Below, in pieces: positions 29,874 to 52,294 of a stretch of 64,000 nucleotides of DNA (position 1 is the first letter of the stretch; the number at the start of each line of letters is the position of its first letter). This DNA is from Myxococcota bacterium (lineage in GTDB: Bacteria; Myxococcota; Kuafuiibacteriia; Kuafuiibacteriales; Kuafuiibacteriaceae), in NCBI GenBank assembly GCA_028289325.1, contig JANQQN010000055.1:8452-72451 (forward strand), given 5' to 3'. Made by a program: the position numbers and the translations under genes. The notes under the pieces are model-generated. The model was not told where the DNA came from. It saw only the letters and a list, made by a program, of their open reading frames with translations, and ran no database searches.

Positions 29874-30233
29874 GAAGCGCAGGTCCCACAGATTCCCAAG
29901 CCTGTAAAGGTGACCTGCGGCCGGTGGTCAGCCGCTCCAGGCGGGCCGGACGACATGACTTCGGACGAAGGAAGTCGATACGCCCCGAACCTCATTTCAA
30001 ACGCGGAGTCATGATGTTACTCCGGCATCACGCAGACAAGTTCGCGCCCAAACCCGCGGCCTGAAGGGTCCAGGTGCTGGTGACAGCCGTGCGACCGTGG
30101 CGATGAATGGAGAGCGGGTAGAGCCATCCGGGCCGAATCCCGACCGTCATCACTCCGCGGGGCCGCGGCGATCGATACTATTCCGATGCGAGGACGACTT
30201 CGCTACCAGTGGGCAGACTTCGGACAGCTGACG

Positions 30234-31775
30234 TCATCGGCACCTTCCCTTTGATGCGCCGAAGCCACGTCCCACGCGACACTTGCGTCCGAGGCGACGA
30301 GGTACACCTCGCGGACATCGCCCCAAGTCCCGAACGCCCACCACGAAGTCCTGCACGTCCACCACCCCATCCCCGTTCAGGTCGGCGGGACCACCGTTTT
30401 GACCAAAGGCCTTGCGGATCCTGAGGATGTCGAAGGGACCGACGAATCGATTGCCGTTGAGGTCGGCCGGGCACGGCAACCTTGTCCCCTCGATAAGATA
30501 TGCGCGGCCAACGTCCACACCTGCAAAACTCCGACCTACCGCGGTGACCAGAAAGTCAGGTATGCGGTCGCCATTCACGTCGCCGACGGAAAGCGCGTCG
30601 ACGCCGAAAAAATCTCCGCCAACATCGGCAGTGATTCGACGGAGCAACGCGCCGCTGCGGCCCGAGAATATGTAGGCGGCGCCGGCCTGTGGGGCACCGC
30701 TACTATTCAGGTAGGCGGCGACGATCACGTCGTTGTATCGGTCGCCATTGACGTCAGCGATACCACGGCCAGGTCCCAGGCCATCCCCGGGGGAGAATCC
30801 GGTGAAGACATGGACCAGGTCACCGGTTCGCCCAGAGAAGATGTAAGCGCGTCCGGTCCCCGCCCGCGCATCAACCCCCTCGGCATAGTCGCCAACGAAG
30901 ACGTCGGGAACCCGGTCGCCGTCGACGTCGCCGGCTCCGGAGGCGAAGAACTCGCCGAAGACCGAGGCTTCCGCGGGATCGATGGGTTCGAGTCGATGGA
31001 TTGTCGATCCATCATGACCGTTGACCACGTAGGCTTCCCCGCCCCCCGATGGTCCCGCACCCGCGGCGCCGATGGACAGGTCGACGATCCCATCGTCGTT
31101 GACGTCGCCCACGAGCCCCAGGGCAGAGCCGAAACGATGTCCTTCCCCCGCCCCGTCTTGCGTCCACAGGACAGATCCATCGAGCCCCGAAAATGCAAAG
31201 ACGCGCCCCGCACCGGAAAACGCGGATGAATTGGTCTGCGAGCCCACGATGATGTCGTCGTGGCCGTCGTGGTTGACGTCTCCCGCGCCGCTGACCGAGC
31301 TACCGAAACCGGTCGTCGCCGAAACGTCGAAGATCACGGAATGGTCCTTGCCCGAGTACACGCGAACGGCGCCGCCCCCGATCACGTAGTCCGCAACGCC
31401 GTCACCGTTCACGTCCCCGGCGTACGCAACGCTGTAGCCGAGTGCCTGCCCCGGACTGCCGATAATGTCGTTGATTACCGCGCCCGTGGCGCCCGAGTAC
31501 AGCGTCGCTCGACCCGAGAAGCCGCTGTAAGCGATGGCGGGGATCAGGACCTCGTGAACATGGTCTCCATCGAGGTCCGGGATGCTCGCGCCGACCCATC
31601 CGAAGTAGTCACCGACCTGTTCCCCTTCGAGCTGCCGCAGCACCCGAACGTCTTCTTCGACGAACTGAGCCGCCGCGGGCCCCGGCCCCATCGCCAACGT
31701 GGCAAGGAAGGTCGCCCCCGCGATAGCGCGGCGCGTCTTTTGAAGCATCCTCGGGCGTGTCTCATTCTCTCGCAT
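30234..31775 (-). CDS. Secreted FG-GAP/integrin-alpha beta-propeller protein with dockerin-like C-terminal domain
   Basis: Repeated FG..V..AGDVNGDG..D units; CPADLNGN and ADLNGDGVVD; signal peptide; GGAG RBS. Confidence 0.9.
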   Translation of the reverse strand: MRENETRPRMLQKTRRAIAGATFLATLAMGPGPAAAQFVEEDVRVLRQLEGEQVGDYFGWVGASIPDLDGDHVHEVLIPAIAYSGFSGRATLYSGATGAVINDIIGSPGQALGYSVAYAGDVNGDGVADYVIGGGAVRVYSGKDHSVIFDVSATTGFGSSVSGAGDVNHDGHDDIIVGSQTNSSAFSGAGRVFAFSGLDGSVLWTQDGAGEGHRFGSALGLVGDVNDDGIVDLSIGAAGAGPSGGGEAYVVNGHDGSTIHRLEPIDPAEASVFGEFFASGAGDVDGDRVPDVFVGDYAEGVDARAGTGRAYIFSGRTGDLVHVFTGFSPGDGLGPGRGIADVNGDRYNDVIVAAYLNSSGAPQAGAAYIFSGRSGALLRRITADVGGDFFGVDALSVGDVNGDRIPDFLVTAVGRSFAGVDVGRAYLIEGTRLPCPADLNGNRFVGPFDILRIRKAFGQNGGPADLNGDGVVDVQDFVVGVRDLGRCPRGVPRRLGRKCRVGRGFGASKGRCR

Positions 31776-31925
31776 CCATCTCCTCCTCGGAGGCCTTTTG
31801 GCCGCCTCCTACGCATCGGGACCGAGGGATGCCACAGCGCCCAAAACCGGCGCTGTCAAATTCCTGCTCGTTGCGCCGAGACTACCGCGCCCTCGGGCAT
31901 GGACACGGAGGCGGCGAAGGCCGCC

Positions 31926-32918
31926 TTACGCCGAACTTCGGGCCAACGTGACGAGGCGCTCTTCGAGCGCGCGGATGCGTCTCGTCGTCAGGTCTTCGCG
32001 AATCCTCGACGGCGGTACACCAAACGTCCGTCGGAAGTTGTGAGCGAAATGGCTGTGGCTCGCAAAGCCGAGGTCCAGTGCGATCTCCGTGAGGTCACAG
32101 TCTCGCTCAGTAAGCCGGTGGAGCGACGCGCGAAGCCGGAGCTGGTTCAGGTACTGATGTATGGACGCGCCGATATGGCTGCGGAATATGCGGCTGAGAT
32201 GAAACGGCGAGGTGTGGATCCGCTCGGCGAGCGCCGATACCGTCAGCCGTTCCTGATAGGACGAACCGAGCTCCGCTCGGGCCGCTTCGGCCAGCTCCGC
32301 GTGGACTCGCACTGCGCGCGAGACTCGACGAGTCGGACGGCGGCCGTCACGGACGCGAAAAGCGCTGGCCAGCGTCTCCCGAAGAAGCGTGAGCACCAGG
32401 TCTTCCACCCGCATGGGGTCCGGCGCCTCCGTCGAACTGAGGTACGCCGTGAGCGTCCGCTGAGCCAGATACACGTGGGTGGCGCACGGACCCGAAACGA
32501 ACGGAAAAGGGGTGCTTGGGCGATCGTGAACCGTCGGATCGTATTCCGAGACCGCTTCGATAGCCGTTGCCTCGGTGATCACGAAGAAGTCGCAGTGGTC
32601 CCCGTCTCGGCTGATCGCGTCGCGGCGGTACTGTTGCCCACGGTTGTAGAACATGACGGTGCCGCTGTCGGCCACGACCGGCGCCGCCGCAGCGTGGGTG
32701 ATGCGAACGCTGGTGCGCGGGAAAACGAACAGGTGCGCGGCGATGGGGCCGGTGTCCGAGAAATCCGGGTTGTCAGGCCGCACCCGAAACCGGGCCGCCC
32801 GAACCAAGTCCGTGCCGAATAGATGCTGCTCGAGACGTACCCCTCGGCCGGCTCGGCGAATGTTCCAGCCAAGAGGGTCAGCGTCGGCGCGACGTTCGGG
32901 ACGGTCGGAGGGCGGCAA
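31926..32918 (-). CDS. AraC-family transcriptional regulator
   Basis: SPFHLSRIFR...LTEIALDLGFASHSHFAHNFRRTFGVPPS; start uncertain (TTG 32918 chosen; ORF open to 33206 but overlaps the next gene). Confidence 0.9.
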   Translation of the reverse strand: MPPSDRPERRADADPLGWNIRRAGRGVRLEQHLFGTDLVRAARFRVRPDNPDFSDTGPIAAHLFVFPRTSVRITHAAAAPVVADSGTVMFYNRGQQYRRDAISRDGDHCDFFVITEATAIEAVSEYDPTVHDRPSTPFPFVSGPCATHVYLAQRTLTAYLSSTEAPDPMRVEDLVLTLLRETLASAFRVRDGRRPTRRVSRAVRVHAELAEAARAELGSSYQERLTVSALAERIHTSPFHLSRIFRSHIGASIHQYLNQLRLRASLHRLTERDCDLTEIALDLGFASHSHFAHNFRRTFGVPPSRIREDLTTRRIRALEERLVTLARSSA

Positions 32919-33087
32919 CCCATGAATAGTGAAACCGATGCACGCCCGGATCAAGGGCAAGCGCTTCGAAGCGTCGGCCCGCCCAAGGACGGCCTGTCGG
33001 CCATCGCGGCCGCTGGTCGTGCAAAAAGCCGTCGACCGGGTCCAGCTACGGAAGCTTCTCGCCGCCGCGACCAAACACTGCACCAAG

Positions 33088-33774
33088 TCACGACCCCACG
33101 ATCGGTAAGTGGGCCCCGCAAACCTCTCGCACGTCCCGCGTCCGGCCATAGAGCCAAACGCTTTCGCCTTCTCGAAGCACCCGACCGGGCCCCGGAGCGC
33201 CCTCATACCGGCCGCGAGGCGACTGGATGCCCAACACTACGATGCCTTCCCTCGCCAGGTGGGCGCACTCGAGCGCCCGGTTTGCGAGGCCGGATCCGAC
33301 CTGAACCTCGAGCACCCCGTATCCGTCCGAAAGGTGCAGTAGATGGCTATAGTCTCGCGCGTCGAGGTCCGTCCATCTGGTGAGGGCCCAAGTTATGACG
33401 CGCCCAAAAACTCGATCGATCGCGTCGCTGCAGGCGATAAGGGCGAGCATCAGCAAGCCCGCGCCCATCACCAGCCACCCTCGCCACGGCTGCGCATGGT
33501 CGGCGATGGTCACGACGGAGAGGGTCAAAGAGCCGAGCACCGAGACGATGCCGGCATTGCCGGTGAGCATGAGCATCATGATGATCCGGCGGCGGACCGG
33601 ATGATTCACGATCCACTCCGATTCGGCGGTGGTGAAGCCCGCGCCGGTAAGCGCCGACCGCGTCTGAAACCGCGCCGTTTCGCGGGACAGCCCCGTCAAC
33701 TGAAGGGCCACCGTCGCGATTCGGCCGATGAGCATGGTGATGGCGAGGATGACGATGAGGGAGGCAGCAGCCAT
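33088..33774 (-). CDS. Membrane protein with TrkA-C (RCK_C) domain, K+ channel-like
   Basis: LTGLSRETARFQTRSALTGAGFTTAESE family signature; C-terminal GIVVLGI..G.Y RCK_C. Confidence 0.85.
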   Translation of the reverse strand: MAAASLIVILAITMLIGRIATVALQLTGLSRETARFQTRSALTGAGFTTAESEWIVNHPVRRRIIMMLMLTGNAGIVSVLGSLTLSVVTIADHAQPWRGWLVMGAGLLMLALIACSDAIDRVFGRVITWALTRWTDLDARDYSHLLHLSDGYGVLEVQVGSGLANRALECAHLAREGIVVLGIQSPRGRYEGAPGPGRVLREGESVWLYGRTRDVREVCGAHLPIVGS

Positions 33775-33837
33775 CGCTTCCTGGATGCCGCGCGATCGGT
33801 CCGGGTTACGGAACGAGACACACAGCCGCCGACGATC

Positions 33838-35106
33838 TCAGCCGGCCGTCGACCGGCGCGTGGGATGCTGCGTCACCAGGGTCATTTCTGCCGACCGCCG
33901 GTCGCTTCGCTGCATCAGGCGGCCGTACATGGCCGCGCCCGGAACCGCGGTCCATCCGTGCAGGAAGACGCTGAAGAAGGCGGTCACCACGACGGCGTCG
34001 AACAGTCGCTCACCGTGAGGAACAGACGCTTCGGAGAGGATGAGAATACCGTACAGAATCGATGCCAGGCCTCGGGGTCCGAACCACCCCACAAAAACAT
34101 AGCTAGGCCACCGTAGGCCGCTGCCGAGGAGTGAAAGCGCGACCGGTATCATCCGAACGATCGTCAGGCTGACCAACGCGTAGACCAGGACGGCCGGGCT
34201 CGCCGCGCTCAGCGACGGCGTCGCGAACATGGCGCCGAAACCCAGAAACACAGCCAGCATCAGCAGCTGTCCCTCTGTCTCGAGAAACGTGAGCATCCAC
34301 TCGCACTGATGTCGATGCATGTTGCCCAAAGTCATGCCGCCCACGAACGCGGCAATAAACCCATTGCCGCCGACAAGCTCCGCACCCCCGAAGCACATCA
34401 ACGCCAGTACCAACCCGCTGAGCCGCTTGAAGCTTACGGCCATGAGCCCAGCGTCGCTGGCCCGCCGGACCAACCATCCCCCAATCCAAACGACGATGAA
34501 TCCCACGAGGGGGCCGAGGGTCAGTTGAAACACGCCGAACTGGATCCAGTCCTGTAGGGTGCGCATCTCGCCCTGGCCCGTGCTCGCCAATGATACGAAG
34601 ATCAGAACAAACGGGAGAGCAATCCCATCGTTGAGACCGCTCTCCACGTTTAGGGCCTGCCTGATGCGAAGCGGCACCTGTGGACTCGATACGACAGCCT
34701 GCCCGAGAGCGGCGTCGGTGGGCGCCAATACCGCCCCCAGGGCTGCGGCCTCCCACCAGCCCAGCTCGGGCAAAAACACCTTCGCCAGGACCGCGCCCAG
34801 AGCGATGGATAACGGAAGTCCTATCCCGAGCAGACGCGCGGGAAGCCCCAGCTCCTTGCGGAGCGCGGCCAGATCGATGCGGGTCGCGTCCCCGAACAGG
34901 ACCAACACCAAGGTCAGCTCGGCCAGAATATCGAGCGCACCCTCCTCGAAGTCAAAATGCAGAGCGCCCAACACCGTCGGGCCCACCAGCAGTCCCAGGA
35001 GAACAAAGACCATCGGCGGCGTGAGCACCGTCGCCTCCAGCCGCTTGGAAAGAAGACCGAAGCCCAACACCAATCCAGCGAGAAGCAATACGTCGGCGGG
35101 ATTCAT
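33838..35106 (-). CDS. CPA1/NhaP-type cation:proton antiporter
   Basis: LAPTDAALG, NVESGLNDG, RMIPV, GWFGPRGLAS motifs. Confidence 0.93.
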   Translation of the reverse strand: MNPADVLLLAGLVLGFGLLSKRLEATVLTPPMVFVLLGLLVGPTVLGALHFDFEEGALDILAELTLVLVLFGDATRIDLAALRKELGLPARLLGIGLPLSIALGAVLAKVFLPELGWWEAAALGAVLAPTDAALGQAVVSSPQVPLRIRQALNVESGLNDGIALPFVLIFVSLASTGQGEMRTLQDWIQFGVFQLTLGPLVGFIVVWIGGWLVRRASDAGLMAVSFKRLSGLVLALMCFGGAELVGGNGFIAAFVGGMTLGNMHRHQCEWMLTFLETEGQLLMLAVFLGFGAMFATPSLSAASPAVLVYALVSLTIVRMIPVALSLLGSGLRWPSYVFVGWFGPRGLASILYGILILSEASVPHGERLFDAVVVTAFFSVFLHGWTAVPGAAMYGRLMQRSDRRSAEMTLVTQHPTRRSTAG

Positions 35107-35220
35107 CGGTGATGCATCGACCTCTAGGCCTAGATGCACGTCGAGCCGTTGGGTTACACGGAATCGAAGCCGGCGACTCCCGGTCGCGGTCGGGGCGCAA
35201 ACCGTTCATCCATCGACAGC

Positions 35221-35808
35221 CTACGGGTCGGAATCTCCACCCCGCAGGCTGTTGATGGCTCGAGTCACGATGACCCCCCGCATACGATCCATGAGAGGCG
35301 CGCTCAGGCCGACGCGCTCCATGCCACCTACGATTCCGCTGGTGTACCCTTCCGCAATGATCGCGCCGACCGTATCCATGATCCGCGAGAACGAGGTGGA
35401 CACACGAAGCGCCAGGTCGGGCTCAAAAGTCTCTCGACACTTAGCCGCGAAAGCGTCTTTGACGGAAGTCACCATACCCAACATGTAGAAGTTGGGAACT
35501 CCGGCCCGAATATGGATCAAACCGACGATCCACGCGTCTAGCCAGAACGAGTCGCCGGGCTCACCGGACACCAGCTTCTCGTACCAGTCGAGCAATGACT
35601 TCTCCCTCGTTTCGCGCTCGTGCGCCTGGAGGATCTCCGCCGTCGGCTCATACGTATAGAGCTGGTCGTAGAATCGCTTGGCGATCGCGGGCCCCCAATC
35701 CTTGGTTGTTGCGACCACCTCTTTGAGGACCTGCCAGTCCTGTTCCGTGAGCTCGTTGAGCTTGGTGACTCCTTCGAATGTTTCAGAGAAATCCGCTTTC
35801 ATGGACAT
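35221..35808 (-). CDS. Stand-alone protoglobin/sensor-globin domain protein
   Basis: IAKRFYDQL (B10 Tyr), PTAEIL, VGLIHIRAGV (proximal His) match the sensor-globin pattern; GAGG RBS. Confidence 0.85.
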   Translation of the reverse strand: MSMKADFSETFEGVTKLNELTEQDWQVLKEVVATTKDWGPAIAKRFYDQLYTYEPTAEILQAHERETREKSLLDWYEKLVSGEPGDSFWLDAWIVGLIHIRAGVPNFYMLGMVTSVKDAFAAKCRETFEPDLALRVSTSFSRIMDTVGAIIAEGYTSGIVGGMERVGLSAPLMDRMRGVIVTRAINSLRGGDSDP

Positions 35809-35824
35809 GACTTTACCCTCGAGG

Positions 35825-36901
35825 TCACCGCTCTCCCACGCTGCTGACGCCCTCTCCAACCGCGGTCAATGCGTTCGCCGCATCGAACACAACCCGCCGG
35901 AGCAGCGGAGTCGGGAGCCCAGGCCCCTCGGTCAGCGTCGCGAGTGCGATGTGGACCTCATCTTCGTTGATGGTGCATGCGCTGACCGTGAGGCCTCCGT
36001 CGCCTTCGAGGGTCACCCGCTTTATCGATCCCAGAGGGAGGAGGTAACCGACCCGCTCTTGCAGCTCGATCAGTAGACCACAAAGCGCAGCCAGAGGCTC
36101 CTGCTGCTCCCCCGATCCTCCGATGGGAAAGCCCAACTCGTCGGCGACGACACTCGATCGATGGCCAGTGGCCCCCGCAAGAGGGCGCATGATGGCCTCG
36201 AGGGTGCGGTGCGAGTCGCGACCGGGACGCTCGAGGCTCGGCGGCACCAGGCCCCAGCCTCGAATCTTCTTCAGCTCCCGTATCGCCTGCACCAGCCGAC
36301 GTTCGAGCTGCTCATTGAGACCTCGGAGCGCTTCCGCGCGCTTCGCTCGCTCCTTGAGCGCCCCGAGCTCCTGAAGACTACGTTTGGTGAGATCGAGATC
36401 GAGAAGGAGTGCATCTCGCTCGGACGCCGCCTTCCGGAGCTTCGGAACTTCAGCCAGGGCACGTTTGGCCGCGCCGAGCGTGTTCCGAAGGTGGGCGACC
36501 TCCTGCTCCAAGGCCGCGGCACGCTCAACCCCCGAGCGTAACCGCTCCAATTCGCGCTCATTCCGCTCTTCATCGCGCTCTTTGGATGCCAGCTGAACCT
36601 TGATCTGTTCCGCCTGCTGGCGAGCTGCTGCCTCCTGATCCCTCACGCTCTGTTCAAGGCTCGCCATTCGGCTCAAGGCCGCGTCACGATCTTTGGCCAC
36701 CGCGTCCCGCTCTCGAATCAGTTGATTTCGCTCGTTCTGCAGCCGCTCGCGGGCCTCGATGACCGTACGGTGATCTCGAAGATCCGCTTCGTGCTGGGCG
36801 GTGACGATGGACAGTCTCCGCGAACCCCAAAGGTAGCCGGCGATCAGCAAGCTCGCCGCGCCCAGAGCCGAAAGGCACCATATCCAGTGAAGAACCGTCA
36901 T
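35825..36901 (-). CDS. N-terminally membrane-anchored coiled-coil protein with C-terminal roadblock/LC7-like domain
   Basis: TM helix, ~180-aa E/R/L/A heptad region, then SSVVADELGFPIG...EPLAAL roadblock-like pattern. Confidence 0.7.
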   Translation of the reverse strand: MTVLHWIWCLSALGAASLLIAGYLWGSRRLSIVTAQHEADLRDHRTVIEARERLQNERNQLIRERDAVAKDRDAALSRMASLEQSVRDQEAAARQQAEQIKVQLASKERDEERNERELERLRSGVERAAALEQEVAHLRNTLGAAKRALAEVPKLRKAASERDALLLDLDLTKRSLQELGALKERAKRAEALRGLNEQLERRLVQAIRELKKIRGWGLVPPSLERPGRDSHRTLEAIMRPLAGATGHRSSVVADELGFPIGGSGEQQEPLAALCGLLIELQERVGYLLPLGSIKRVTLEGDGGLTVSACTINEDEVHIALATLTEGPGLPTPLLRRVVFDAANALTAVGEGVSSVGER

Positions 36902-37452
36902 CGTGGCTCCAGCCGGATCTCTACGCGTCTATTCAGTCGGTTGGCCGCTCGGCCGCTCCCCGACCGCTTAGGCTGCTGTTCGCCGAACGCTCGCACCCGG
37001 ATGCTCGACGCCGGAAGTCCGCGGTCGACCAACCAACGTTTCACGGCCTCGGTTCGTTTGCGACTCAAGACCTGATTGAACCGGGCCGACCCCACGGCGT
37101 CCGTGTGGCCTGAAAGTTCGACGTCTCCGGGAGAACGTTCAAAACCGTCCACCACCGATTCGAGCTCGCGAGTCGCCGCCGAGCGCAGGTCGGTGCTGCC
37201 ATTGCCAAAGTACACGACCCAGGTCTCGGGCTGCGGGGGCGGAGGCGGCTTCGGCTTCGCAACGTCTTCGACCTTGGGCTCGCGAAGTCGGACCGCTAGC
37301 GGAGGCATGCTCGGCTCCACCTTTCGCGGCGCATCAGCTTTCGCGCCAAGGCCGTAGTGGCTTGGAATCAACACGAGGTCCACGTACGCGAGGTTTCCCA
37401 GTCCGACGGCACAAGCCACGACAGCACCCACCGACCGCCACCCGGCGATCAC
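36898..37452 (-). CDS. OmpA/MotB-type peptidoglycan-binding protein with N-terminal membrane anchor
   Basis: VYFGNGS, GHTDAVGS, NQVLSRKRTEAV, FGEQQP, NRRVEI. Confidence 0.92.
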   Translation of the reverse strand: MIAGWRSVGAVVACAVGLGNLAYVDLVLIPSHYGLGAKADAPRKVEPSMPPLAVRLREPKVEDVAKPKPPPPPQPETWVVYFGNGSTDLRSAATRELESVVDGFERSPGDVELSGHTDAVGSARFNQVLSRKRTEAVKRWLVDRGLPASSIRVRAFGEQQPKRSGSGRAANRLNRRVEIRLEPR

Positions 37453-37868
37453 AGAAGCGCCCGAGCGAACTCGCCCAAGGCTCGTTTTAACTCCAAGAAG
37501 ATGAGACCCAGTTTTGCCTCGCGGGTAACGAGAAGAAGGACGGCGGTATCATCATTGATGGCATTCACGATGACGTAGCCATTGGGCGACCGCACGTACA
37601 CTTGTTCCATCACCTGATCCATCAGATCCTTTGAAATGCGCTCAGAGACGCCTAGCAGCGACGCCGCCATCCCGCCGATCACCTCCTCGTCGACCTCGGC
37701 GGGAAGCATGCTGGACACGATGAACCCGTCCATCGTCACGAGCGCGGCCCCAATGATGTCGGTGGACACCATCCGCAAGGATCGCAATGCAGATTTCACC
37801 ATTTCGGTCCGAGAGGTCGGCACGGCCTCCGGACGCCGCGTGGGGCGTTCTGGTCCAGTGTTAGCCAT
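37449..37868 (-). CDS. Roadblock/LC7 (MglB-like) protein
   Basis: IIGAALVTMDGFIVSS...IGGMAASLL...QVYVRSPNGYVIV...AKLGLIFLE. Confidence 0.92.
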   Translation of the reverse strand: MANTGPERPTRRPEAVPTSRTEMVKSALRSLRMVSTDIIGAALVTMDGFIVSSMLPAEVDEEVIGGMAASLLGVSERISKDLMDQVMEQVYVRSPNGYVIVNAINDDTAVLLLVTREAKLGLIFLELKRALGEFARALL

Positions 37869-37872
37869 CGAT

Positions 37873-39282
37873 TCACTCCATTTTCTGCCGTAGTCGGCGC
37901 ACATTCGTCAGCAACGTTTGGTTGCCGGGATCCAGTTTGGACGCCACTTCCCATTCCGCCAGCGCCGCCTCGAGTCGACCGTCCCGACGAAGCTCGAGTC
38001 CGCGCTCGAAGTGGAGCAAGGCATCCTGCGTAGGTTCGTCGGATTCCTCGGGAGACTCCGAGGCCTGCTCGGCGTTACCCGTCGACACATCGCTGGTGCG
38101 TCTATACAACGCAAACACATTGGCCGCATTGTCGGACGGCGCGGGTCGCGGCGATGAAGAGAACAACGCCCCTGGGCTAACGCTGGAAGTCGGCGCTTGC
38201 GGGATATGGGTCTTCGAGAACGCCGCCGCCACCCCCGCTTGCTCCGAAGCATCCCGTCGCATGACAGGCTCGGACCGGATGCTGAGGGAGGCCTCCGGAT
38301 CGTCCTCGTGGGCCGCCGCTGCGCCCGCGGGAACGGGCGCGTCGGCACCTGATTCGATGAACAACATTCGCATGAGCCCGGCCAGCATATCGCGCGGCGC
38401 GGGCTCATCGATGAGAGCCCTCAAACTCCGCCCCAGCGCCGCGACGTCACCACCGCATCGTGACGAAGGTTCGCGCGACAACGCCGCTACGATCTGCCGG
38501 TCCACTTCTGGCGGAAGGTCGTGTCGAATCTGAATGGGAGGAACCAACGGGGCATTGGTGATCTGGAACATCAGCTCCGCTTCGCTTCGGCCCGTGAAAG
38601 GTCGCCGACCCGTCAAGAGTTCGTAGAGCGTCGCGCCAAGGGCGTAGATATCCCAACCTGCGTCGGCCGAGGCCCCAGCCAGAGCTTCGGGAGCCACGTA
38701 CGGCAGCTTTCCTTTCAGTTCCCCGCTGACGGTCAGCGCGGACAGCTGGGTGGTCGCAACACCCATATCCAGGAGCTTGGTGGCCCCCTCGAACCCCACC
38801 ATGATGTTCTCGGGGCTGACGTCTCGATGCACCAGCCCAAGCCTACGTCCCGACGCATCGCGATGATCGTGGATATGGGCCAGGGCATCACAACACTCTG
38901 CGCCGACGGCGAGGGCGACCGGCCAAGGTACGGAGGCGCCGATACCATCGAGGCGCTGGAGCACCTGGCGCAGGGTGCGCCCCCTGACGAACTCCATCTC
39001 AATGAAGAAGCGTTCGTGCAGAACTCCGAAGTCGTAAACGTGGATCAGATTCGGATGTGATAGCCCCGCGCCGAACGCGGCTTCTCGAACAAATAGTTCG
39101 ATGAACTGCGGTTGACGGCAGACGTGAGGCAAGATCACCTTCAGCGCGACGGGGTGATGGCTGTGGTCGTCGTGGTGGCGGCCTCGCCATACGACAGCGG
39201 TCCCGCCGATCCCCAACTCTTCGTCCACGACGTAGGGGCCAAAGATCTGTCCAGGCCCCAGCTCAAGACTCGATCTGCTCAC
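37873..39282 (-). CDS. Hanks-type Ser/Thr protein kinase with C-terminal TPR
   Basis: GIGGTAVV, VALK, HRDVSPEN, DMG, GKLPYVAPE, DIYALG; HFERGL..AALAEWE..LDP TPR; GTG 39282 overlaps the upstream TGA. Confidence 0.92.
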   Translation of the reverse strand: MSRSSLELGPGQIFGPYVVDEELGIGGTAVVWRGRHHDDHSHHPVALKVILPHVCRQPQFIELFVREAAFGAGLSHPNLIHVYDFGVLHERFFIEMEFVRGRTLRQVLQRLDGIGASVPWPVALAVGAECCDALAHIHDHRDASGRRLGLVHRDVSPENIMVGFEGATKLLDMGVATTQLSALTVSGELKGKLPYVAPEALAGASADAGWDIYALGATLYELLTGRRPFTGRSEAELMFQITNAPLVPPIQIRHDLPPEVDRQIVAALSREPSSRCGGDVAALGRSLRALIDEPAPRDMLAGLMRMLFIESGADAPVPAGAAAAHEDDPEASLSIRSEPVMRRDASEQAGVAAAFSKTHIPQAPTSSVSPGALFSSSPRPAPSDNAANVFALYRRTSDVSTGNAEQASESPEESDEPTQDALLHFERGLELRRDGRLEAALAEWEVASKLDPGNQTLLTNVRRLRQKME

Positions 39283-40562
39283 TGCCGCATCGCCTCTTGC
39301 GTATCGAGCTCGACATAAGCCTCCAGAAGCGCTGCCGTCACTTCGAAAGCAACCTGACCTGCGACAGGGGGATACAACGCCTCGCGGAGCCGAACGAACC
39401 AGAATCGCCCTGAACGCCACGCCACCATCTCCCGCAGCGCAGACTGCAGCCGCCGCCACGCGGCGGGGCGAAGCTCATTTGGTGGGTGAGCGTCCTCCAG
39501 CTCGACTAAACACCTGTTCGGCGACGACTCGACGTCCGATTCCTGTAGCGTGGCGGATGCCGCATCACGTCGCGTGGACCTCGCGAAGACCAGCTGTCCT
39601 CGCCACAAGTGAATGACCCCGTGCCCGTGCGGGGAATCGGCAACCAGGGTTCCCGTGGCCCGAGACTGACCGAGAGTTGCGAGCAGGTCCGGTAACGCGA
39701 TGATCGAAAAATCGCCGGCGAGACCGGTGTCCTGCACAAAGCCGCGCGGTTCGAGCCGAGAGGCCACCAACTGTCGCAAGTCGACATCGGACGCGACGGA
39801 GGGGCTCGACGACACCAGCTCGTTCTCCGCCTGGTGTAGATGACCACAAAGCGCGAGGGCTGCGACATGGTTCCATTGAACATAGGGCAGCTCGCCCCAC
39901 TCGGCCTTCATCGCCAAGAAGTGTTTCAAGGCGTCATCGAGCTTTCCGGATCCCCACAGCGTCGCGGCAAGCTCAATGCGCAAGTTCAGCGAGCGCGGCC
40001 ACGTTTCCAACGCCAGCCCCAGGAGTTCTTCGGCGCTTCGAAAGTGGTGAAGAGAGCGTAGGAACGCGGCCTTGCAGTCCAGGAACCGCTCTGAGCCCTT
40101 CGCCTCCGCGGCAAGCGCATCCAATCTGCGCCCGGCATCGATGGTGGCGCCCGCCTCGATTCCCAGGCGAATCGAATCGAGCTCGATCTCCGCGAAGAGC
40201 TCGCCGGAGAACGGCCGACAGGACTGAAGTACCTCGGTCCCTTTCGAGACCTCGTCTGCGATCATGTAGGCCGTGCCGAGAATGCGTCGAGGGAGCCACG
40301 CGGTGGGGTGGCTATGGATCGCCCGCTGTGCATGCGCTTCGATCCGCCTCACGGCCATCGCGGCATGGCGGTTGGGCGGGTGCCGGACAAGCTTGCCCAA
40401 CAGTAACTTGGCGATGTGGGTATGGCCTTCGGGCGACAGGTCGGACCGTTCGAGAACCGATGAGCGAATCGACTGAGCTAATTCGTCCGCGGAGTAGCTC
40501 GAAGCTATCCAATCGCACCCCGGCCGAGTCGCCCTCCTGAACGAGACCGCATCCCCCTTCAC
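39279..40562 (-). CDS. TPR-repeat protein with C-terminal DUF4388 (PATAN-like) domain
   Basis: GLAGDFSIIALPDLLATLGQSRATGTL...GVIHLWRGQLVFA...WRSGRFWF...ALLEA..ELD. Confidence 0.88.
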   Translation of the reverse strand: MKGDAVSFRRATRPGCDWIASSYSADELAQSIRSSVLERSDLSPEGHTHIAKLLLGKLVRHPPNRHAAMAVRRIEAHAQRAIHSHPTAWLPRRILGTAYMIADEVSKGTEVLQSCRPFSGELFAEIELDSIRLGIEAGATIDAGRRLDALAAEAKGSERFLDCKAAFLRSLHHFRSAEELLGLALETWPRSLNLRIELAATLWGSGKLDDALKHFLAMKAEWGELPYVQWNHVAALALCGHLHQAENELVSSSPSVASDVDLRQLVASRLEPRGFVQDTGLAGDFSIIALPDLLATLGQSRATGTLVADSPHGHGVIHLWRGQLVFARSTRRDAASATLQESDVESSPNRCLVELEDAHPPNELRPAAWRRLQSALREMVAWRSGRFWFVRLREALYPPVAGQVAFEVTAALLEAYVELDTQEAMRQ

Positions 40563-40675
40563 CCCACAATAGCCCTCTAGGGCGGGAGATATATCCCATC
40601 AATCCGGTGAAGAAAAGGGACGCCCAACCGCGGGGTCTCCTCGACCACCGTTGGGTTCCCCGCGGGAGCGAGCGA

Positions 40676-42868
40676 TCAAGCGGTCTTGGCCGTGCCTCCG
40701 CGAGGGGCCCAGTGCGCCAGCTTATCCTGTAGCGATCGACGGTCGATGGGCTTCGTCAGATAGTCGTCCATGCCCGCCTGCAAACACTCGTCGCGCACCC
40801 CCGGCAACGCGTTCGCGGTCAGGGCGATGATCGGGGTCCGGAAGCCGTGACGGTCGCGCAAGCGGCGAGTCGCGGCGAGACCGTCCAATACCGGCATCTG
40901 CACATCCATGAGCACGGCGGCATACGTCTCTTGTCGAGCCGCTTCAACGGCCTCTTCACCGTTGTCGACGGTCTCCGGCTCGTAGCCCAGACGACGCAAC
41001 AGATGAACCGCGAGCTTTCGGTTCACGGGGTTGTCTTCAGCGACCAGGATTCGGGGATGGTCATGCGACGCGATCGCTGGCGCCGTCTCGGCGATCGAGA
41101 CCGGGGTCTCCTCGTCCGCCGATTTCTCGACCAGAGTCGGCCATAAGCTCCCGTGCCGCAGTGGCTTCAGCAGAAGTCGAGGCTTACATCCACCGGGCCA
41201 CTCGGCGCGAAACGCGAGCCGATGCCGGATCAGGGTGACCTCTGGTCGTCGAAGAAGGTCATCGAGGTCCTCACCAGCCAGGCTTTCGTCGACGAGTGCA
41301 CGCCACACCTCGTCGCCGTCGAGGACGCTCCGCACGGCGGACATGTCGTCCGCGAAAAGGCAGTCTACGTCTTTTCCGCCGAGCTCGGTCGCGAGTTGGG
41401 CTCGCAGGCCTGAACTCGGAACCGCAACCACGATCCGGCCCGGCAGCGGCGACGGCACCGAACGTTTATCCCCGCCGAACGTCGGCATCGGGTCACTGAC
41501 GTCGAGCGGCACCTCGGCCGTAAAGCATGAGCCCCGCCCGAGGTCGCTGCGCACGGAGATTTGGCCGCCCATCAACTCGATGAGCTGCCGGCTGATCGCA
41601 AGACCGAGCCCCGTTCCGCCGTGCCGTCGGGTCGCGGACTCATCGACCTGAGAGAAGGCATGGAAAAGCCTCGGCAGCTTGTCGGGCGGAATTCCAGGCC
41701 CGGTATCGGTCACGGAGAATCGGAAAGCACCCGACGCCGTGCGTTCGAGTCGAGCGACCACCTCGCCGCTGTCGGTGAACTTCACCGCATTGCCGAGCAG
41801 ATTCACCAGCACTTGGCGAAGCCGGCCGGCGTCACTGATGACGTACCTCGGCGTCGACGGATGGACGACGAGGGCGAGCTCGAGCCCTTTTTCGTAGGCG
41901 CGGGCTGACAAAAGGTCGATGACGCGGTCCATGACCTCCGCCAAGTCCACGGGGGCTTCGTTGATTCGCAGCTTGCCAGCCTCGACCTTGGAGAAGTCGA
42001 GAATGTCGTTGATGATAGTAAGAAGCGAATCGCTACTATTTCGGATGGTCTGCGCGAAGTCCTTTTGCTCCTCGGTCATCGGCGTTTCGAGCAGCAGTTC
42101 GGTCATTCCGACGACGCCGTTCATCGGCGTGCGGATCTCGTGACTCATCGTGGCGAGAAACGTACTCTTGGCCTCGCTGGCCAGCTCCGCGGCCCGTTTG
42201 GCGCTCGCCAGCGACCGCTGGGCTTGTTCGAGCTCCGACACCTTCTGAGCGAGTTCTTGGTTGCGGCCTTCGAGCTGCCGCTCGAAGTGGTCGCGCCCAA
42301 CCTCGAACATGCACCCAAACGCGAGTAGAGCGCCGTACACCAACGCCAGTCGCAGCAGAACAGGAGACGCGTGCGGCACCACCGCGCCGGGGCTGTCGAG
42401 CCAGGCTGCGCCGATGATGTTGACCGCCAGCAACGCGACGGCCAAGATCGCCCCTAAGCGGGCGCCGAGAAAGAACACTGCGACCAGCGGGAAGGAACAC
42501 AACCAGATGATCCCCGTACCGTTGGCTCCCCCCCAAAAGACAAGACAAGTGAAGAACACCGATACGCCGGTCAGGCCGATGTAGCTGACGATCCGCTCGT
42601 CGAGGCCGCTTCGCAGTCCGAGCAGCAACCCGACCAACACGGTGCCGAAGCCGAAATCGATGGTGGCGAGAAACCGGTCCCCGCAATAACTATTGTAGGC
42701 GCCCATGAAGACCAGGTAGCCGACGGCGACGTACAAGATGAACTTGATCACTTTTCGGCGTCGACGACGCAAGTGATCCTCTTGGCACGGCCGCGCGAGC
42801 AGGTCGCTCGTGCGCACGCCTCGCCCCGGTCGGCTCGACCGGCGCGCAACCGCGACAAGATGGTCCAT
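40676..42868 (-). CDS. Membrane-bound hybrid sensor histidine kinase/response regulator
   Basis: About 6 TM helices; FLATMSHEIRTPMNG; NAVKFT, DTGPG, GGTGLGL; degenerate receiver then EDN...MDVQMP...KP receiver. Confidence 0.95.
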   Translation of the reverse strand: MDHLVAVARRSSRPGRGVRTSDLLARPCQEDHLRRRRRKVIKFILYVAVGYLVFMGAYNSYCGDRFLATIDFGFGTVLVGLLLGLRSGLDERIVSYIGLTGVSVFFTCLVFWGGANGTGIIWLCSFPLVAVFFLGARLGAILAVALLAVNIIGAAWLDSPGAVVPHASPVLLRLALVYGALLAFGCMFEVGRDHFERQLEGRNQELAQKVSELEQAQRSLASAKRAAELASEAKSTFLATMSHEIRTPMNGVVGMTELLLETPMTEEQKDFAQTIRNSSDSLLTIINDILDFSKVEAGKLRINEAPVDLAEVMDRVIDLLSARAYEKGLELALVVHPSTPRYVISDAGRLRQVLVNLLGNAVKFTDSGEVVARLERTASGAFRFSVTDTGPGIPPDKLPRLFHAFSQVDESATRRHGGTGLGLAISRQLIELMGGQISVRSDLGRGSCFTAEVPLDVSDPMPTFGGDKRSVPSPLPGRIVVAVPSSGLRAQLATELGGKDVDCLFADDMSAVRSVLDGDEVWRALVDESLAGEDLDDLLRRPEVTLIRHRLAFRAEWPGGCKPRLLLKPLRHGSLWPTLVEKSADEETPVSIAETAPAIASHDHPRILVAEDNPVNRKLAVHLLRRLGYEPETVDNGEEAVEAARQETYAAVLMDVQMPVLDGLAATRRLRDRHGFRTPIIALTANALPGVRDECLQAGMDDYLTKPIDRRSLQDKLAHWAPRGGTAKTA

Positions 42869-42972
42869 AGCCCCAACGTACGGGTTCGGCCCAGTCTAAA
42901 CGGTCTTGAGGATGTCTCGGAGCCGCGGCAAACAACACGCCGCTTCAAGGCGCGCATGATACACCTTGGGCC

Positions 42973-43644
42973 GTGACGACATTCTGCAATGAAGCATGGC
43001 TGCGAAACGCCGGCCTCATCGAATCCATCGAACAGCACGCCTTCAATCGGGAGCTGGCCGCCAGCGATCTCGCGCCGGACCGCTTTCAACGCTATGTGAT
43101 TCAGGACAGCCTATACCTCAAGCGCTATGGTCAAGTGTTGGCGCTTTGCGGCGCGAAGGCCTCGACGCAAGAAGACCTCGCCTTCTTTACCGCGTCCGCT
43201 GGCGAAGCGATCCGGGTCGAGCAGTCGATGCACGGCGACTTCCTCGATCAGTTCGGGGTGTCCGCAGCCGAGCTCGCTGACGCAAAACCGTCCCCGGTTT
43301 GCCGAGCGTATACCGATTTCTTGCTCGCGAGCGCGTGGGGCGAGCCGTATCCCGTCGCGGTCGCGGCCACCCTGCCGTGCTTTTGGGTCTACGGGCACAT
43401 CGGCCGCAACATCGCTCGCCGCACCGTCGACAACAATCGCTATCGTGCTTGGATCGATACCTACTCTGACCCCGGCTTCGCCCAAGCCGTCGAGCAGATC
43501 AAGACGATCACCGATCGCGTCGCGGCCGAAGCGGACCAAGCCACCATCGTCGCCATGCACGAAGCTTTTCGACTCTCGACCCTATACGAGTACATGTTTT
43601 GGGACTCCGCCTACGCGGGGGCCGACTGGCCGCTCATGGGCTGA
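42973..43644 (+). CDS. tenA: TenA/thiaminase II family protein
   Basis: YVIQDSLYL, LPCFWVY (catalytic Cys), YRAWIDTY, YEYMFWDSAY. Confidence 0.9.
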   Translation: MTTFCNEAWLRNAGLIESIEQHAFNRELAASDLAPDRFQRYVIQDSLYLKRYGQVLALCGAKASTQEDLAFFTASAGEAIRVEQSMHGDFLDQFGVSAAELADAKPSPVCRAYTDFLLASAWGEPYPVAVAATLPCFWVYGHIGRNIARRTVDNNRYRAWIDTYSDPGFAQAVEQIKTITDRVAAEADQATIVAMHEAFRLSTLYEYMFWDSAYAGADWPLMG

Positions 43645-43688
43645 TGCTCGGCCCTCTCGCTCGCTCGTATCGAACGAGAGGCGCGAGT

Positions 43689-45404
43689 CTAGGCGGCGGG
43701 AGCTTCGCTATCCAACCCGTGAGATGGAAGCCGGTTCAAGACGAACGATGGCTTCGGGATCTCGACCTGCAGATCGGGATAGAAATCCTCGAAGTCTGGG
43801 CGTGATTTGGCCTCCAGCTGCCGTCCAACATACTGCGCCGGCGCGAGATCGAAGGTCAGCCCATGAGCTTTGAAGTCTCCGCTGAGGCGGTGTTGCAGCT
43901 GCTCCAATCGAACCAATGTGGACAGATATGCGCTTCGCCACACTTCGAGAAACAGCCGGTGATCCATCGGGTTGTTGGCGAGCAGCCTACGCTGCCGATT
44001 GGAAGGCAAGAACGTGAACACGCTGACTTCCGGATAGCGACGAAGCACCCAGTTGCGAGCGTTCTCGAAGCGGGTATACGAGATGGTTCGAACGCTTTGA
44101 TCCAGGTGGTAGAGCAGGCCGCGAGACCGGGCATAACCAGGTTCTTTTGAAACGTAAGGAACAAAAGGATCGATCACAACCACCAACGTGGCCTCGCGCC
44201 GGATCGCTTCCACGAAGTTCGACGTCCGCGTCACCGCGCCGTCTTCGTAGTATCGACCTTCGATCTCTACCGACGGAAACACCGGAGCGAAACTCAAGGA
44301 AGCCTGCGCAGCTTTGCTGATCGGAACGTGGTTGTGCATCTCCGCCCCAAACAGCACGTGTTGCCGAGCGTCTTGATCCGACGCACCGATGTATAGCTCG
44401 GATACGAGCTCACGGAAGTCATTGGTCGTACCCGGCACCTCCAGCGCCAGGCGGAGCATCTCTTCGAAGGCATCGGATCGAAACAGAGGCTGAACGAAGT
44501 CGCTGTACTCGAGAAAGAAGTCGTCGAGAGAGCGACGCGCGCTCCTACGCACTATGCTCACCAGCCATTTCACCGCGGCTTGGAGCGCTCTCTTCGACCG
44601 GGACAGCGCGTGACGATAGTTGAGATGACCGATCTTCAGCAGCCGAAGGTTGAGCGGGGGCATTCGGGTGTCGCGATGACCGACCAGGCTGGCCATGAAT
44701 TCGTCGACCGAATACCCGACCGCGAGCGTGCTTGCGACCACGGCGCCCGCGCTGATCCCAAACAGCATCTGCATCCGATTCAGCGCCCCGGGCGGCAGGC
44801 AATCGCTCAAGCACTTGAGAACGCCGAGCTCGAAGTAGATGCCCGTGATACCCCCACCCGACAGGCAAAGCGCCGTCTTGTCGACCCGCCGGGTCTGGAT
44901 CATCCGGCAAGACTCCACCAAGGCACGCACCGAAAATGGCATCCCGTCCCTAGGCGCGCCGCCATCGCGGAGGACCTGACGAACCCCGTGTGCCCCGAGC
45001 TGCAACAGGAAAGCGTCGACGGCGGGGCCGTCAACGTCGGAGACGAGGGCGACGATGCGATGAAAACCATACCGAGCCTCGACATCTTCGCGGTGGTCGA
45101 GCTGCTTAAGAAGCTCGATGCTCTCCTCCGCCCGTAGACTGAACCGGGTACCGTCGCTCAAGGGACGAACGTCGACCAGCACGAGATTCGCATACTCGTG
45201 CTCGAGGCGTTGGCGGACGGCCACGGGCGTTCGCTCGTGAGCGAGCGTCACCGTAAGCTCATCGATGCTCACCCGAACCGCCCCCGGCATCCAGGTCACG
45301 TCGTGTCCCGATTCCTCAAGCTCGCACGCGAATACGCGAAGCGCATCGCGGGACGGCGCGAAGTAGATGATGTGGCGCTCACCTATGCAGCTGGGAGAAT
45401 TCAT
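43689..45404 (-). CDS. Cytoplasmic patatin-like esterase with N-terminal receiver-like region
   Basis: LSGGGITG, GISAG, EDGA motifs; no signal peptide. Confidence 0.88.
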   Translation of the reverse strand: MNSPSCIGERHIIYFAPSRDALRVFACELEESGHDVTWMPGAVRVSIDELTVTLAHERTPVAVRQRLEHEYANLVLVDVRPLSDGTRFSLRAEESIELLKQLDHREDVEARYGFHRIVALVSDVDGPAVDAFLLQLGAHGVRQVLRDGGAPRDGMPFSVRALVESCRMIQTRRVDKTALCLSGGGITGIYFELGVLKCLSDCLPPGALNRMQMLFGISAGAVVASTLAVGYSVDEFMASLVGHRDTRMPPLNLRLLKIGHLNYRHALSRSKRALQAAVKWLVSIVRRSARRSLDDFFLEYSDFVQPLFRSDAFEEMLRLALEVPGTTNDFRELVSELYIGASDQDARQHVLFGAEMHNHVPISKAAQASLSFAPVFPSVEIEGRYYEDGAVTRTSNFVEAIRREATLVVVIDPFVPYVSKEPGYARSRGLLYHLDQSVRTISYTRFENARNWVLRRYPEVSVFTFLPSNRQRRLLANNPMDHRLFLEVWRSAYLSTLVRLEQLQHRLSGDFKAHGLTFDLAPAQYVGRQLEAKSRPDFEDFYPDLQVEIPKPSFVLNRLPSHGLDSEAPAA

Positions 45405-45740
45405 TAGGGTCGCCTCACGAAAAGAAGTCTACCGCGCCACGTCATAACGCACTAGCTCAACGCGGCCGAGACCTCGCCGATCCGCGCGATGGACGGCCCT
45501 CGTATTCTTCTCCGCGATTTTCATGATCCGCACCGGTTCCCGCTCATCACTTCGCGAAGACGGTGCCGCCGAAGCGCAACGACGCCTAGGTCTGCCTCCC
45601 ATGTCGGTGACCGAACGTCCCTCATTGACCGGCGAGCAAGCACGAAACTCGGCGCGGCGCCGGCTCGGCAGTCTGGTGTCAGCTCTCTTGTCCACGTTTT
45701 GCGATCGATCTGCCCCGCCGGATCGGATCAGTATTCGCGC

Positions 45741-46274
45741 GTGGCGAGATACCGAATGCTCTGCGGGGCACTAACACTTCTGTTGGCATGCGGCGGGTCC
45801 GACGGCCCCGACACGGGATCGAACAGCGGTCTGCCGCTCACCCAGCTGGAAGAGTCGATGCTTGGCACCTGGATTCGAAGTGCTTCGAATGAGACGGAGT
45901 ACTATATCTTCGAAGAAGGCCGGCTGGCCTGCCGCTTTACCCGCCTCGGCGACAACTTCACTTCCCGAGCATTCGAAGTGAAGATCACCGACTAGGCCCT
46001 GGACGAAGAGAACCCCGAGACCGATGAGAACAGCGCGTTGATTCCGGAAGGAAGCACACTCATTCCATTGAGCTATCAGGCGGTCGGTGGAGACTTCTTT
46101 GACTTCGATAGATACGTCGTCGAGACCGATGCATTCGTCACGAACTACGTACCCGAAAGAATCGCCCGACGGGTGAGCATCTTCTCTTGGAATAGCGCGC
46201 GAATCGCCTGCGACGACCGCGCAATCGGGAGCACCGGAACCAACGAACGACGCGGAACCAGGGCCGATGACTGA
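45741..46274 (+). pseudogene. Lipoprotein gene interrupted by an in-frame TAG
   Basis: LTLLLAC lipobox; ...VKITD*ALDEENP... TAG 45993-45995 reads in frame into the listed 46038-46274 ORF. Confidence 0.65.

Positions 46275-46726: not shown

Positions 46727-52294
<5,568 letters not shown>

Follow-up and report, generated by a model that had tools for sequence, protein, structure and literature searches.

A globin-containing operon of a Myxococcota bacterium as a predicted member of a GTPase-less "orphan MglB" cluster with an exchangeable sensor

We analysed a 64,000-nt stretch of a Myxococcota bacterium of the family Kuafuiibacteriaceae (assembly GCA_028289325.1, contig JANQQN010000055.1, positions 8,452 to 72,451; hereafter the window), in which six consecutive open reading frames (ORFs) at 35221-40562, all on the minus strand, encode a DUF4388 protein, a Hanks-type Ser/Thr kinase, a small MglB-type Roadblock/LC7 protein, an OmpA-like protein, a protein with a transmembrane (TM) helix, a coiled-coil-like helix and a C-terminal Roadblock domain (hereafter the TMCC protein), and a stand-alone globin (Table 1). 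Comparison with related loci indicates that this operon is a member of a conserved "orphan MglB" cluster that has no GTPase and carries an exchangeable sensor, the globin taking the place of a V4R protein. For its working we propose, at about even confidence, that a haem gas or redox sensor feeds a membrane- and wall-anchored Roadblock platform that would control the Hanks-type kinase. The component families are known, and their arrangement appears to be undescribed, as the initial annotation of the window had proposed: no description of the cluster was found in full-text literature searches, whose coverage did not extend to subscription journals.

Table 1 Features of the globin-Roadblock operon, its upstream neighbour and the second globin-Roadblock cluster of the source genome.
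Feature	Position	Strand	Basis
DUF4388 protein, 427 aa	39279..40562	-	Pfam DUF4388 E 7.8e-13, 49 bits (cut-off 25); domain at residues 282-422
Hanks-type Ser/Thr kinase with TPR-like C-terminal tail, 469 aa	37873..39282	-	Pfam Pkinase E 1.6e-32
Small Roadblock/LC7 (MglB-type) protein, 139 aa	37449..37868	-	Pfam Robl_LC7 E 8.4e-10
OmpA-like single-pass protein, 184 aa	36898..37452	-	Pfam OmpA E 9.1e-18, 64.9 bits (cut-off 27.2)
TMCC protein (TM helix, coiled-coil-like helix, C-terminal Roadblock at ~228-345), 358 aa	35825..36901	-	hydropathy, AF2, Foldseek
Stand-alone sensor globin (protoglobin/globin-coupled-sensor family), 195 aa	35221..35808	-	Pfam Protoglobin E 6.2e-14
MASE6-HisKA-HATPase-REC hybrid histidine kinase, upstream neighbour	40676..42868	-	Pfam
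C25 cluster (locus L009, on a contig of 4954 bp): globin, Roadblock, 261-aa protein, PF03029-type GTPase, Roadblock	126-3381	+	

The six genes are closely packed. The DUF4388 and kinase genes overlap by GTGA at 39279-82, the kinase starting with GTG on direct reading; 4 nt separate the kinase stop codon from the Roadblock start codon; the Roadblock and OmpA-like genes share a GTGA (37449-52) and the OmpA-like and TMCC genes an ATGA (36898-901). A gap of 16 nt follows the TMCC gene, and a ribosome-binding-like GAGGG precedes the ATG of the globin gene. The GC content and the GC content at third codon positions (GC3) were similar across all six genes and matched those of the neighbouring genes. 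Hydropathy placed one TM segment in the OmpA-like protein (residues 8-30), one in the TMCC protein (2-25) and none in the other four. The ORF check within the window, Pfam and direct reading agree with the coordinates, strand and junctions given in the initial annotation. Its domain labels held for DUF4388, the kinase, both Roadblock domains, OmpA and the protoglobin, while its two TPR labels rest on sub-threshold matches, TPR_19 in the DUF4388 protein (E 0.0023, 18.7 bits against a cut-off of 25) and TPR_2 in the C-terminal part of the kinase (E 0.0017).

Relatives were sought in 40 genomes with the TMCC and DUF4388 proteins and then by tblastn on the regions. Synteny was found in three genomes of the same family, G002, G016 (where the cluster is split over two contigs) and G007, in which identity to the window proteins was 77-80% for the small Roadblock, 45-53% for the C-terminal domain of the TMCC protein, 35-38% for the kinase, 28-40% for the OmpA-like protein and 26-27% for the DUF4388 protein. 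In all three a V4R protein of ~165 aa (PF02830, E 4e-11 to 6e-13) stands in the globin's place after the TMCC gene, and in two of them its gene and the TMCC gene share 4 bp.

A Roadblock-seeded search of genome contigs returned 343 relatives; we considered the best 80. We mapped 42 loci with our own alignment profiles, namely the window, L031-L068, and L111, L117 and L120 from other searches; these were chosen by Roadblock similarity and are therefore not independent of one another. Left out of the map were L069-L110 (42 of the 80; Chloroflexota and beta-proteobacteria, 37-45% identity), which have no kinase, OmpA or TMCC gene. Over the 42 loci the core kinase-Roadblock-OmpA-TMCC-Roadblock recurs in Myxococcota, Thermodesulfobacteriota and Fibrobacterota. 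Each of the 39 loci of this kinase/OmpA/TMCC type with a titled record comes from a metagenome-assembled genome. The Roadblock gene is followed by the TMCC gene in 37 loci, contig ends interrupting the other five. A kinase gene is present in 36 (34 by HMM and two more by phmmer), three are indeterminate at contig starts, and in L051, L057 and L111 the kinase is missing despite upstream DNA. The conserved unit is, by this comparison, a triad of Roadblock, OmpA-like and TMCC proteins, mostly accompanied by a Hanks-type kinase and a sensor gene. The initial annotation had treated all six genes as one system, and as a set they are not conserved: the core recurs, the globin replaces V4R specifically in this lineage, and DUF4388 genes came to light only in the family to which the window belongs, where syntenic homologues occur in G002 and G016 and a further homologue lies ~10 kb off on the opposite strand in G007.

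The sensor position proved variable. It is occupied by V4R alone in 23 of the 42 loci, by V4R together with a 4Fe-4S protein, the small and large subunits of a [NiFe]-hydrogenase and, in many cases, a HycI protease in eight, by a Protoglobin-hemerythrin fusion in two (L051 and L111) and by a plain globin in the window only; no sensor was recognised in eight. V4R is described as a ligand-binding fold of the Bet3/TRAPPC3 type, structurally like H-NOX, in the part of PMC10933270 available to us. The V4R proteins of the cluster are Cys-rich and share 61-76% identity within Myxococcota; their C126 is invariant, C112 and C152 are nearly so, and they give a hit below the cut-off (E 2e-9) against the V4R portion of the NCBIfam model named MsvR transcription factor. 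That the globin's slot is elsewhere filled by other ligand or redox sensors fits a sensory input.

In a maximum-likelihood Roadblock tree of 47 rows (the 42 loci and five outgroup rows from Chloroflexota and Pseudomonadota), the window grouped with three V4R-type loci (support 100/97), and the two globin-hemerythrin loci formed a separate clade (100/100). Because the window nests with V4R loci and the fusion loci stand apart, the tree points to at least two independent recruitments of globins into the sensor slot, and in the window's lineage the globin is read as having replaced V4R. The terminal branch of the window Roadblock was 0.30 long against a median of 0.074, its three V4R-type sisters having 0.07-0.12, possibly reflecting faster change or adaptation to a new partner after the sensor swap.

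The V4R-hydrogenase loci (L054, L055, L060, L061, L063, L064, L065 and L067; e.g. L064 1818-9209) come from metagenome-assembled genomes (MAGs) of Thermodesulfobacteriota, two of Myxococcales/"delta proteobacterium" (L054, L055) and one of Chitinivibrionales. There a cassette of kinase, HycI protease, V4R, [NiFe]-hydrogenase subunits and 4Fe-4S protein precedes the Roadblock(-OmpA)-TMCC core. We checked the hydrogenase type with Pfam; the closest model to its large subunit is that of VhuA (E 1e-100, below the cut-off). In anaerobic carriers V4R is often joined to this hydrogenase, which is read as cytoplasmic. Through the cassette the same platform may receive an H2 or redox input. The fusions of L051 (4372-5361) and L111 (6968-7939) join two types of O2-binding domain in one chain in the sensor slot, and each is followed by an unannotated ORF of ~340 aa. 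A kinase is missing from both loci, and upstream in L111 its place is taken by a Trans_reg_C winged-helix protein.

Redox genes were also found around the cluster: a multihaem cytochrome c in nine of the 42 loci (e.g. L047 9188-9868; Pfam-checked), DUF3050, a haem-oxygenase-like, iron-containing redox enzyme family, directly beside it in L031 (3498-4415) and L034 (8837-9664), and a gene of the Prismane/CO-dehydrogenase family immediately after the TMCC gene in L068. No motility, chemotaxis or secretion gene recurred beside the cluster in the loci examined.

The window globin matched Pfam Protoglobin (PF11563) at 52.7 bits (cut-off 25) over residues 10-157, its sole Pfam domain. The nearest solved sequences were 5OHE, the globin-coupled histidine kinase AfGcHK (E 3.5e-10), and 8H17, the single globin Tlr1989, itself a stand-alone protein (E 9.4e-9), with a weaker match to the Geobacter globin-coupled sensor (GCS) globin 2W31 (E 2e-3). 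The motif around His99 aligned with the RIGRVHVRIG stretch of the AfGcHK globin domain, whose histidine we take to be the haem ligand, and His99 is invariant in eight of eight subfamily sequences. An FYD motif aligned with the FYD of AfGcHK and Tlr1989 and contains a candidate distal Tyr (B10), kept in six of the eight sequences; the two globin-hemerythrin fusions have Gly instead. A C-terminal extension past the Pfam domain carries invariant G167, L172 and R175 in the eight-row alignment. These features support a predicted haem sensor of the sensor-type protoglobin/GCS lineage, in agreement with the gas-sensing role first assigned to it, and by likeness to O2-sensing globin kinases its ligand would most likely be O2. 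In globin-coupled sensors such as AfGcHK the transmitter lies in the same chain. The 195-aa window globin has no other domain and is flanked by stop and start codons; on these grounds it is classed as a stand-alone sensor-type globin and not a GCS, and it would signal through separately encoded partners.

Homologues of this globin are few. The homologous-protein search gave three proteins, namely the globin itself, one 89% identical on a 2.7-kb contig and one 38% identical. A single-globin query found no related loci among genome contigs or metagenome contigs, and a three-globin alignment found three loci in genome contigs and none in metagenome contigs. The source genome has exactly two Protoglobin matches, both adjoining Roadblock genes. 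Complex prediction of the globin (eight rows) with the small Roadblock (22 rows) and with the TMCC C-terminal domain (26 rows) scored 0.00 and 0.02 against a mark of 0.32 and is evidence neither way.

Such a globin might instead be no sensor of the module, being an enzyme or buffer for NO detoxification or for O2 scavenging or delivery at the end of the operon, or serving the downstream Na+/H+ exchanger. It has a single domain with no transmitter, it is missing from the three closest sister clusters, and the exchanger gene is the next gene on the same strand, 82 bp away. We hold this to be improbable: the globin sits exactly in the V4R position, with a 16-nt gap and its own GAGGG, the slot has taken up a globin on at least two occasions, each of the genome's two globins is linked to Roadblock genes, the protein belongs to a sensor lineage whose best solved match is an O2-sensor kinase domain, and its GC3 resembles that of its neighbours, which does not suggest a recent insertion. 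The exchanger gene itself (33838-35139, minus strand) is followed by a gene for a membrane protein with a weak TrkA_C match (33088-33774, minus strand). A homologue of the exchanger with 25% identity lies after the TMCC gene of L063 (Desulfobacteraceae, 9642-11552); with two of the 42 loci showing this neighbour, it may be chance.

Among the core proteins, the small Roadblock is the best conserved in our alignments, with a mean column identity of 61% over 22 orthologues from three phyla. A profile search with the Roadblock alignment against 1.84 billion representatives gave 2640 matches at E <= 1e-3, 990 at <= 1e-10 and 11 at <= 1e-30, which shows only that the orthologue group is compact. In the TMCC protein, Pfam Robl_LC7 was matched below threshold (E 0.0088). 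An AlphaFold2 (AF2) model of its last 144 residues from a 26-row alignment reached a pLDDT of 87.3, and its best Foldseek matches were MglB chains (6izw_C, E 9e-7, probability 1.0), with Ragulator chains also among the matches; modelling thus settled the C-terminus as a predicted second Roadblock-fold domain. Residues 2-212 were modelled as a single continuous helix, including a coiled-coil-like stretch of ~190 residues, and the TM helix bears a GAxLFFxAG-like motif common to most orthologues. In the ESM Atlas the TMCC protein falls in "hypothetical protein" clusters from Myxococcota only. NCBIfam holds no model matching the Roadblock, TMCC, globin or DUF4388 proteins.

The OmpA-like protein keeps an Asp in its TM segment in most orthologues. 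A lipoprotein assignment from its lipobox-like VVAC string was dropped: because the Cys is not conserved, the protein is read as an inner-membrane TM anchor with a periplasmic peptidoglycan-binding domain of the OmpA/MotB type. NCBIfam and PADLOC matches of the periplasmic domain were of the MotB, TssL, Pal and ZorB type. The envelope-anchored Roadblock scaffold proposed in the initial annotation is in keeping with the TM segments of the OmpA-like and TMCC proteins and with the long helix model.

Alternatively, the OmpA-like and TMCC proteins could make up a structural or stator-like unit fixed to the wall and serving, for example, secretion, surface motility or the integrity of the envelope, and the Roadblock, kinase and sensor genes would only regulate it. 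The conserved TM Asp, the GAxLFFxAG-type motif and the MotB, TssL, Pal and ZorB-type matches would suit such a machine, as would the pairs of coiled-coil and TM-OmpA proteins that accompany Group 1 Rup GTPases according to the available part of PMC4316618. However, no multi-pass partner of the MotA/ExbB/TolQ type was noticed in the loci, in which no systematic or profile search for one was made, motility and secretion genes do not recur as neighbours, and the soluble Roadblock is the most conserved component. We regard an envelope machine of this kind as quite unlikely.

In the kinase, the Gly-rich loop, the VAxK Lys, the alpha-C Glu, HRD, Asn and APE are kept, and DFG reads DMG. The DUF4388 protein consists of a helical, TPR-like N-terminal part and a C-terminal DUF4388/PATAN-type domain. 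In PADLOC the kinase domain hit PD-T4-6 models (best E 1.5e-62) and mad6, and the OmpA domain gave a weak match to ZorB; together with the sporadic distribution of the cluster, this could speak for an anti-phage defence cassette built around a Ser/Thr kinase. The PADLOC matches amount to generic kinase-domain and MotB-domain likeness, though, the other window proteins and V4R have no PADLOC match, and the neighbours are redox and sensor genes and not mobile or defence genes. The defence reading, which we consider highly improbable, was set aside on the generic nature of the PADLOC matches.

Upstream of the operon, 113 bp separate it from the stop codon of the hybrid histidine kinase. No support for a structured element was found in this gap (fold z-score -0.28), and promoter and terminator scans of it stayed at shuffle level (1 vs 0.9 and 8 vs 5.5). 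The hybrid kinase had been suggested as an additional input to the operon, and conservation does not bear this out: G002, the nearest relative of the window, has no counterpart at the same position and carries DUF3050 and HtpG there instead. The hybrid kinase is probably outside the operon unit.

Neither phmmer with the GTPase of the C25 cluster (Table 1) nor a scan for Walker-A, DxxG and NKxD motifs revealed a GTPase in the 42 loci; a very divergent one could escape both searches. At 28000-48000 of the window there is no small-GTPase-like ORF, the sole Walker-A match having neither DxxG nor NKxD, and the absence of a locally encoded GTPase noted in the initial annotation is confirmed for this interval. 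Scored for GTPase versus kinase, the neighbourhood survey gave 0 of 42 against 36 of 42. In the available part of PMC4316618, 421 of 749 MglB homologues are coupled to MglA, the criterion being an MglA-family GTPase within about four genes, and 328 are orphans, none of them characterised. The window Roadblock resembles these orphans in being an MglB-type protein with no MglA-family GTPase within four genes; a neighbourhood of kinase, OmpA, coiled-coil and V4R or globin genes is not described in that part of the catalogue, whose supplementary tables might list some.

C25, on a separate contig of the same genome, holds the second of the two globins. Its protoglobin is 31% identical to the window globin, and apart from its P-loop GTPase (E 1.7e-13) the genome has no PF03029 match. 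Identity between the window Roadblock and those of C25 reaches only 26% (E 0.039), and because of this the two are classed by sequence as different Roadblock systems, each with its own globin. C25 has a GC content of 62.4% and a GC3 of 0.69-0.75, resembling the window. Its composition matches the Group 3 MglA systems as far as these are described in the available part of PMC4316618; the window operon differs from them, and from conservons, in having no GTPase and no protein of the 261-aa type. Of the components of actinobacterial conservons, namely the histidine-kinase-like CvnA, the Roadblock CvnB, the DUF742 protein CvnC and the GTPase CvnD, it has the Roadblock element only, the nearby hybrid kinase not being conserved. 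Two candidate likenesses in C25 were not established: the 261-aa protein as DUF4388-like (no Pfam hit; BLASTP to the window DUF4388 protein E 0.13) and a convergent 169-aa ORF (3415-3924) as V4R (25% identity alignment; no Pfam hit).

Comparable GTPase-linked loci occur elsewhere. In Aquitalea, Chromobacterium and Xenophilus, Roadblock homologues with 40-42% identity lie ~700 bp downstream of a GTPase 42-43% identical to that of C25; such GTPase-Roadblock loci, with no kinase, OmpA or TMCC gene, include L077, L081, L087, L092, L101, L106 and L107 (Xenophilus, Aquitalea). These beta-proteobacterial loci are probably Group 3 MglA systems. A 2931-bp contig of an Anaerolinea MAG (L113, 73-2931, one strand) encodes a globin, two 123-aa ORFs, another globin and a receiver-domain protein; one of the 123-aa ORFs is weakly Roadblock-like by tblastn and has no Pfam hit.

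The Roadblock proteins of the window might accordingly serve as GAP/GEF-type regulators or platforms of a GTPase encoded elsewhere, either MglA or one of the PF03029 type as in C25, with the globin modulating that switch and the kinase an accessory on its input or its output side. The MglA-coupled majority of MglB homologues, the GTPase-Roadblock loci of Aquitalea, Chromobacterium and Xenophilus, the globin-Roadblock-GTPase-Roadblock cluster in the same genome and the MglB chains as best match of the TMCC C-terminal domain lend this some weight. The survey of the 42 loci counts against it; so does the low identity between the window and C25 Roadblock proteins, from which cross-talk is not suggested, and the 328 orphans in the available part of PMC4316618, whose role is not established there. 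A switch in trans seems to us unlikely, though likelier than the other alternatives.

For the reading in which a globin feeds a Roadblock platform, we envisage the following working. The two Roadblock domains would pair into a platform, which the coiled-coil protein would hold at the inner membrane and the OmpA-like protein tie to peptidoglycan. The globin haem would take up O2 (or NO or CO), whereupon the globin may dock on the platform or leave it; the platform would in turn alter the activity or location of the kinase, which would phosphorylate its targets, and the DUF4388/TPR-like protein may be a family-specific adaptor. We put forward a broader form tentatively and with some doubt: a GTPase-independent platform in which a Roadblock pair, tethered to the membrane and tied to the wall, would act as scaffold for a Hanks-type kinase and read gas or redox sensors that can replace one another, namely a V4R/Bet3-fold protein, a [NiFe]-hydrogenase linked to V4R, a globin-hemerythrin fusion or, here for O2, the haem globin. 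Such a platform would be a prokaryotic counterpart of Ragulator/MP1-p14 and, with V4R beside Roadblock, an echo of the TRAPP core of Bet3 and longin/Roadblock proteins. The ideas that phosphorylation replaces a GTPase, and that the operon serves aerotactic reversal control, both raised initially, stay speculation, since no motility or chemotaxis gene is linked to the cluster in the loci examined.

Several observations weigh against the proposed sensor-platform-kinase working. The Roadblock proteins characterised to date act on GTPases, according to the available part of PMC4316618, and a GTPase partner encoded elsewhere is possible. The catalytic-loop Lys of the window kinase is a Ser (HRDVSPEN), as it is in all aligned cluster kinases that keep the catalytic Asp, all of them from Myxococcota; the cluster kinases of Fibrobacterota (L062, L066 and L068) have no catalytic Asp (HGN or HGA for HRD) and an altered DFG and APE, and are probable pseudokinases. 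For these reasons the cluster kinase may act as a scaffold and not by phosphorylation. A globin and a kinase occur together only in the window operon, and three of the eight loci with no recognisable sensor have full flanks (L039, L041 and L058). In a frequency sample of 401 evenly drawn Myxococcota genomes, 12, the source genome included, had a Roadblock orthologue at E <= 1e-25; the sensors were V4R in seven, a globin-hemerythrin fusion in two and the globin in one (the source genome), with one cluster cut by a contig end and one orthologue outside any cluster. The same-genus genome G001 (91% complete) had no Roadblock orthologue, TMCC or globin match, and on both counts the cluster is judged sporadic and dispensable. 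The source genome is a MAG of 8.9 Mb in 587 contigs, 92% complete and 5.9% contaminated, and it is uncertain that C25 belongs to the same organism, an assignment based on likeness in GC and GC3 only.

Among known systems, the MglA/MglB switch of Myxococcus xanthus and Thermus thermophilus shares the MglB fold with both window Roadblock domains. The window cluster differs from it in having no cognate GTPase, in the operon and in the 42 loci, and in having a long-helix, membrane-tethered Roadblock, a conserved Hanks-type kinase and an OmpA-like anchor. A direct precedent for coupling a haem globin with a Roadblock is HGbRL of Methylacidiphilum infernorum, a flavohaemoglobin-like globin fused to Roadblock/LC7 and said to be genus-restricted, whose authors propose that ligand-induced movement of the globin is relayed mechanically to the Roadblock domain (available part of PMC4476040). 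In contrast, the window globin is a separate gene of the protoglobin/GCS lineage in the context of a kinase and envelope anchors; two genes lie between it and the small Roadblock gene, and a stop codon and 16 nt separate it from the TMCC gene.

In eukaryotes, a Roadblock heterodimer anchored to a membrane, Ragulator with MP1-p14 (LAMTOR), provides a platform for protein-kinase signalling. The likeness to the window cluster is one of analogy, a membrane Roadblock platform with a kinase, the evidence of homology extending no further than the Roadblock fold; a homologue in L111 has a sub-threshold Pfam match to LAMTOR5. The bacterial anchor differs in being a TM helix with a coiled coil, and the kinase interaction is putative. 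V4R is regarded as the likely ancestor of Bet3 in PMC2253512, in the available part of which Roadblock is not mentioned.

We know of no output route for stand-alone sensor globins. The operon joins such a globin and an orphan MglB-type Roadblock in a conserved frame whose sensor is visibly exchangeable, and it offers the testable hypothesis that Hanks-type kinases may read O2, H2 or redox state in this way. More bacterial settings are thus known where Roadblock proteins occur together with V4R/Bet3-fold proteins and no GTPase, which bears on ideas about the origins of the eukaryotic Ragulator and TRAPP cores.

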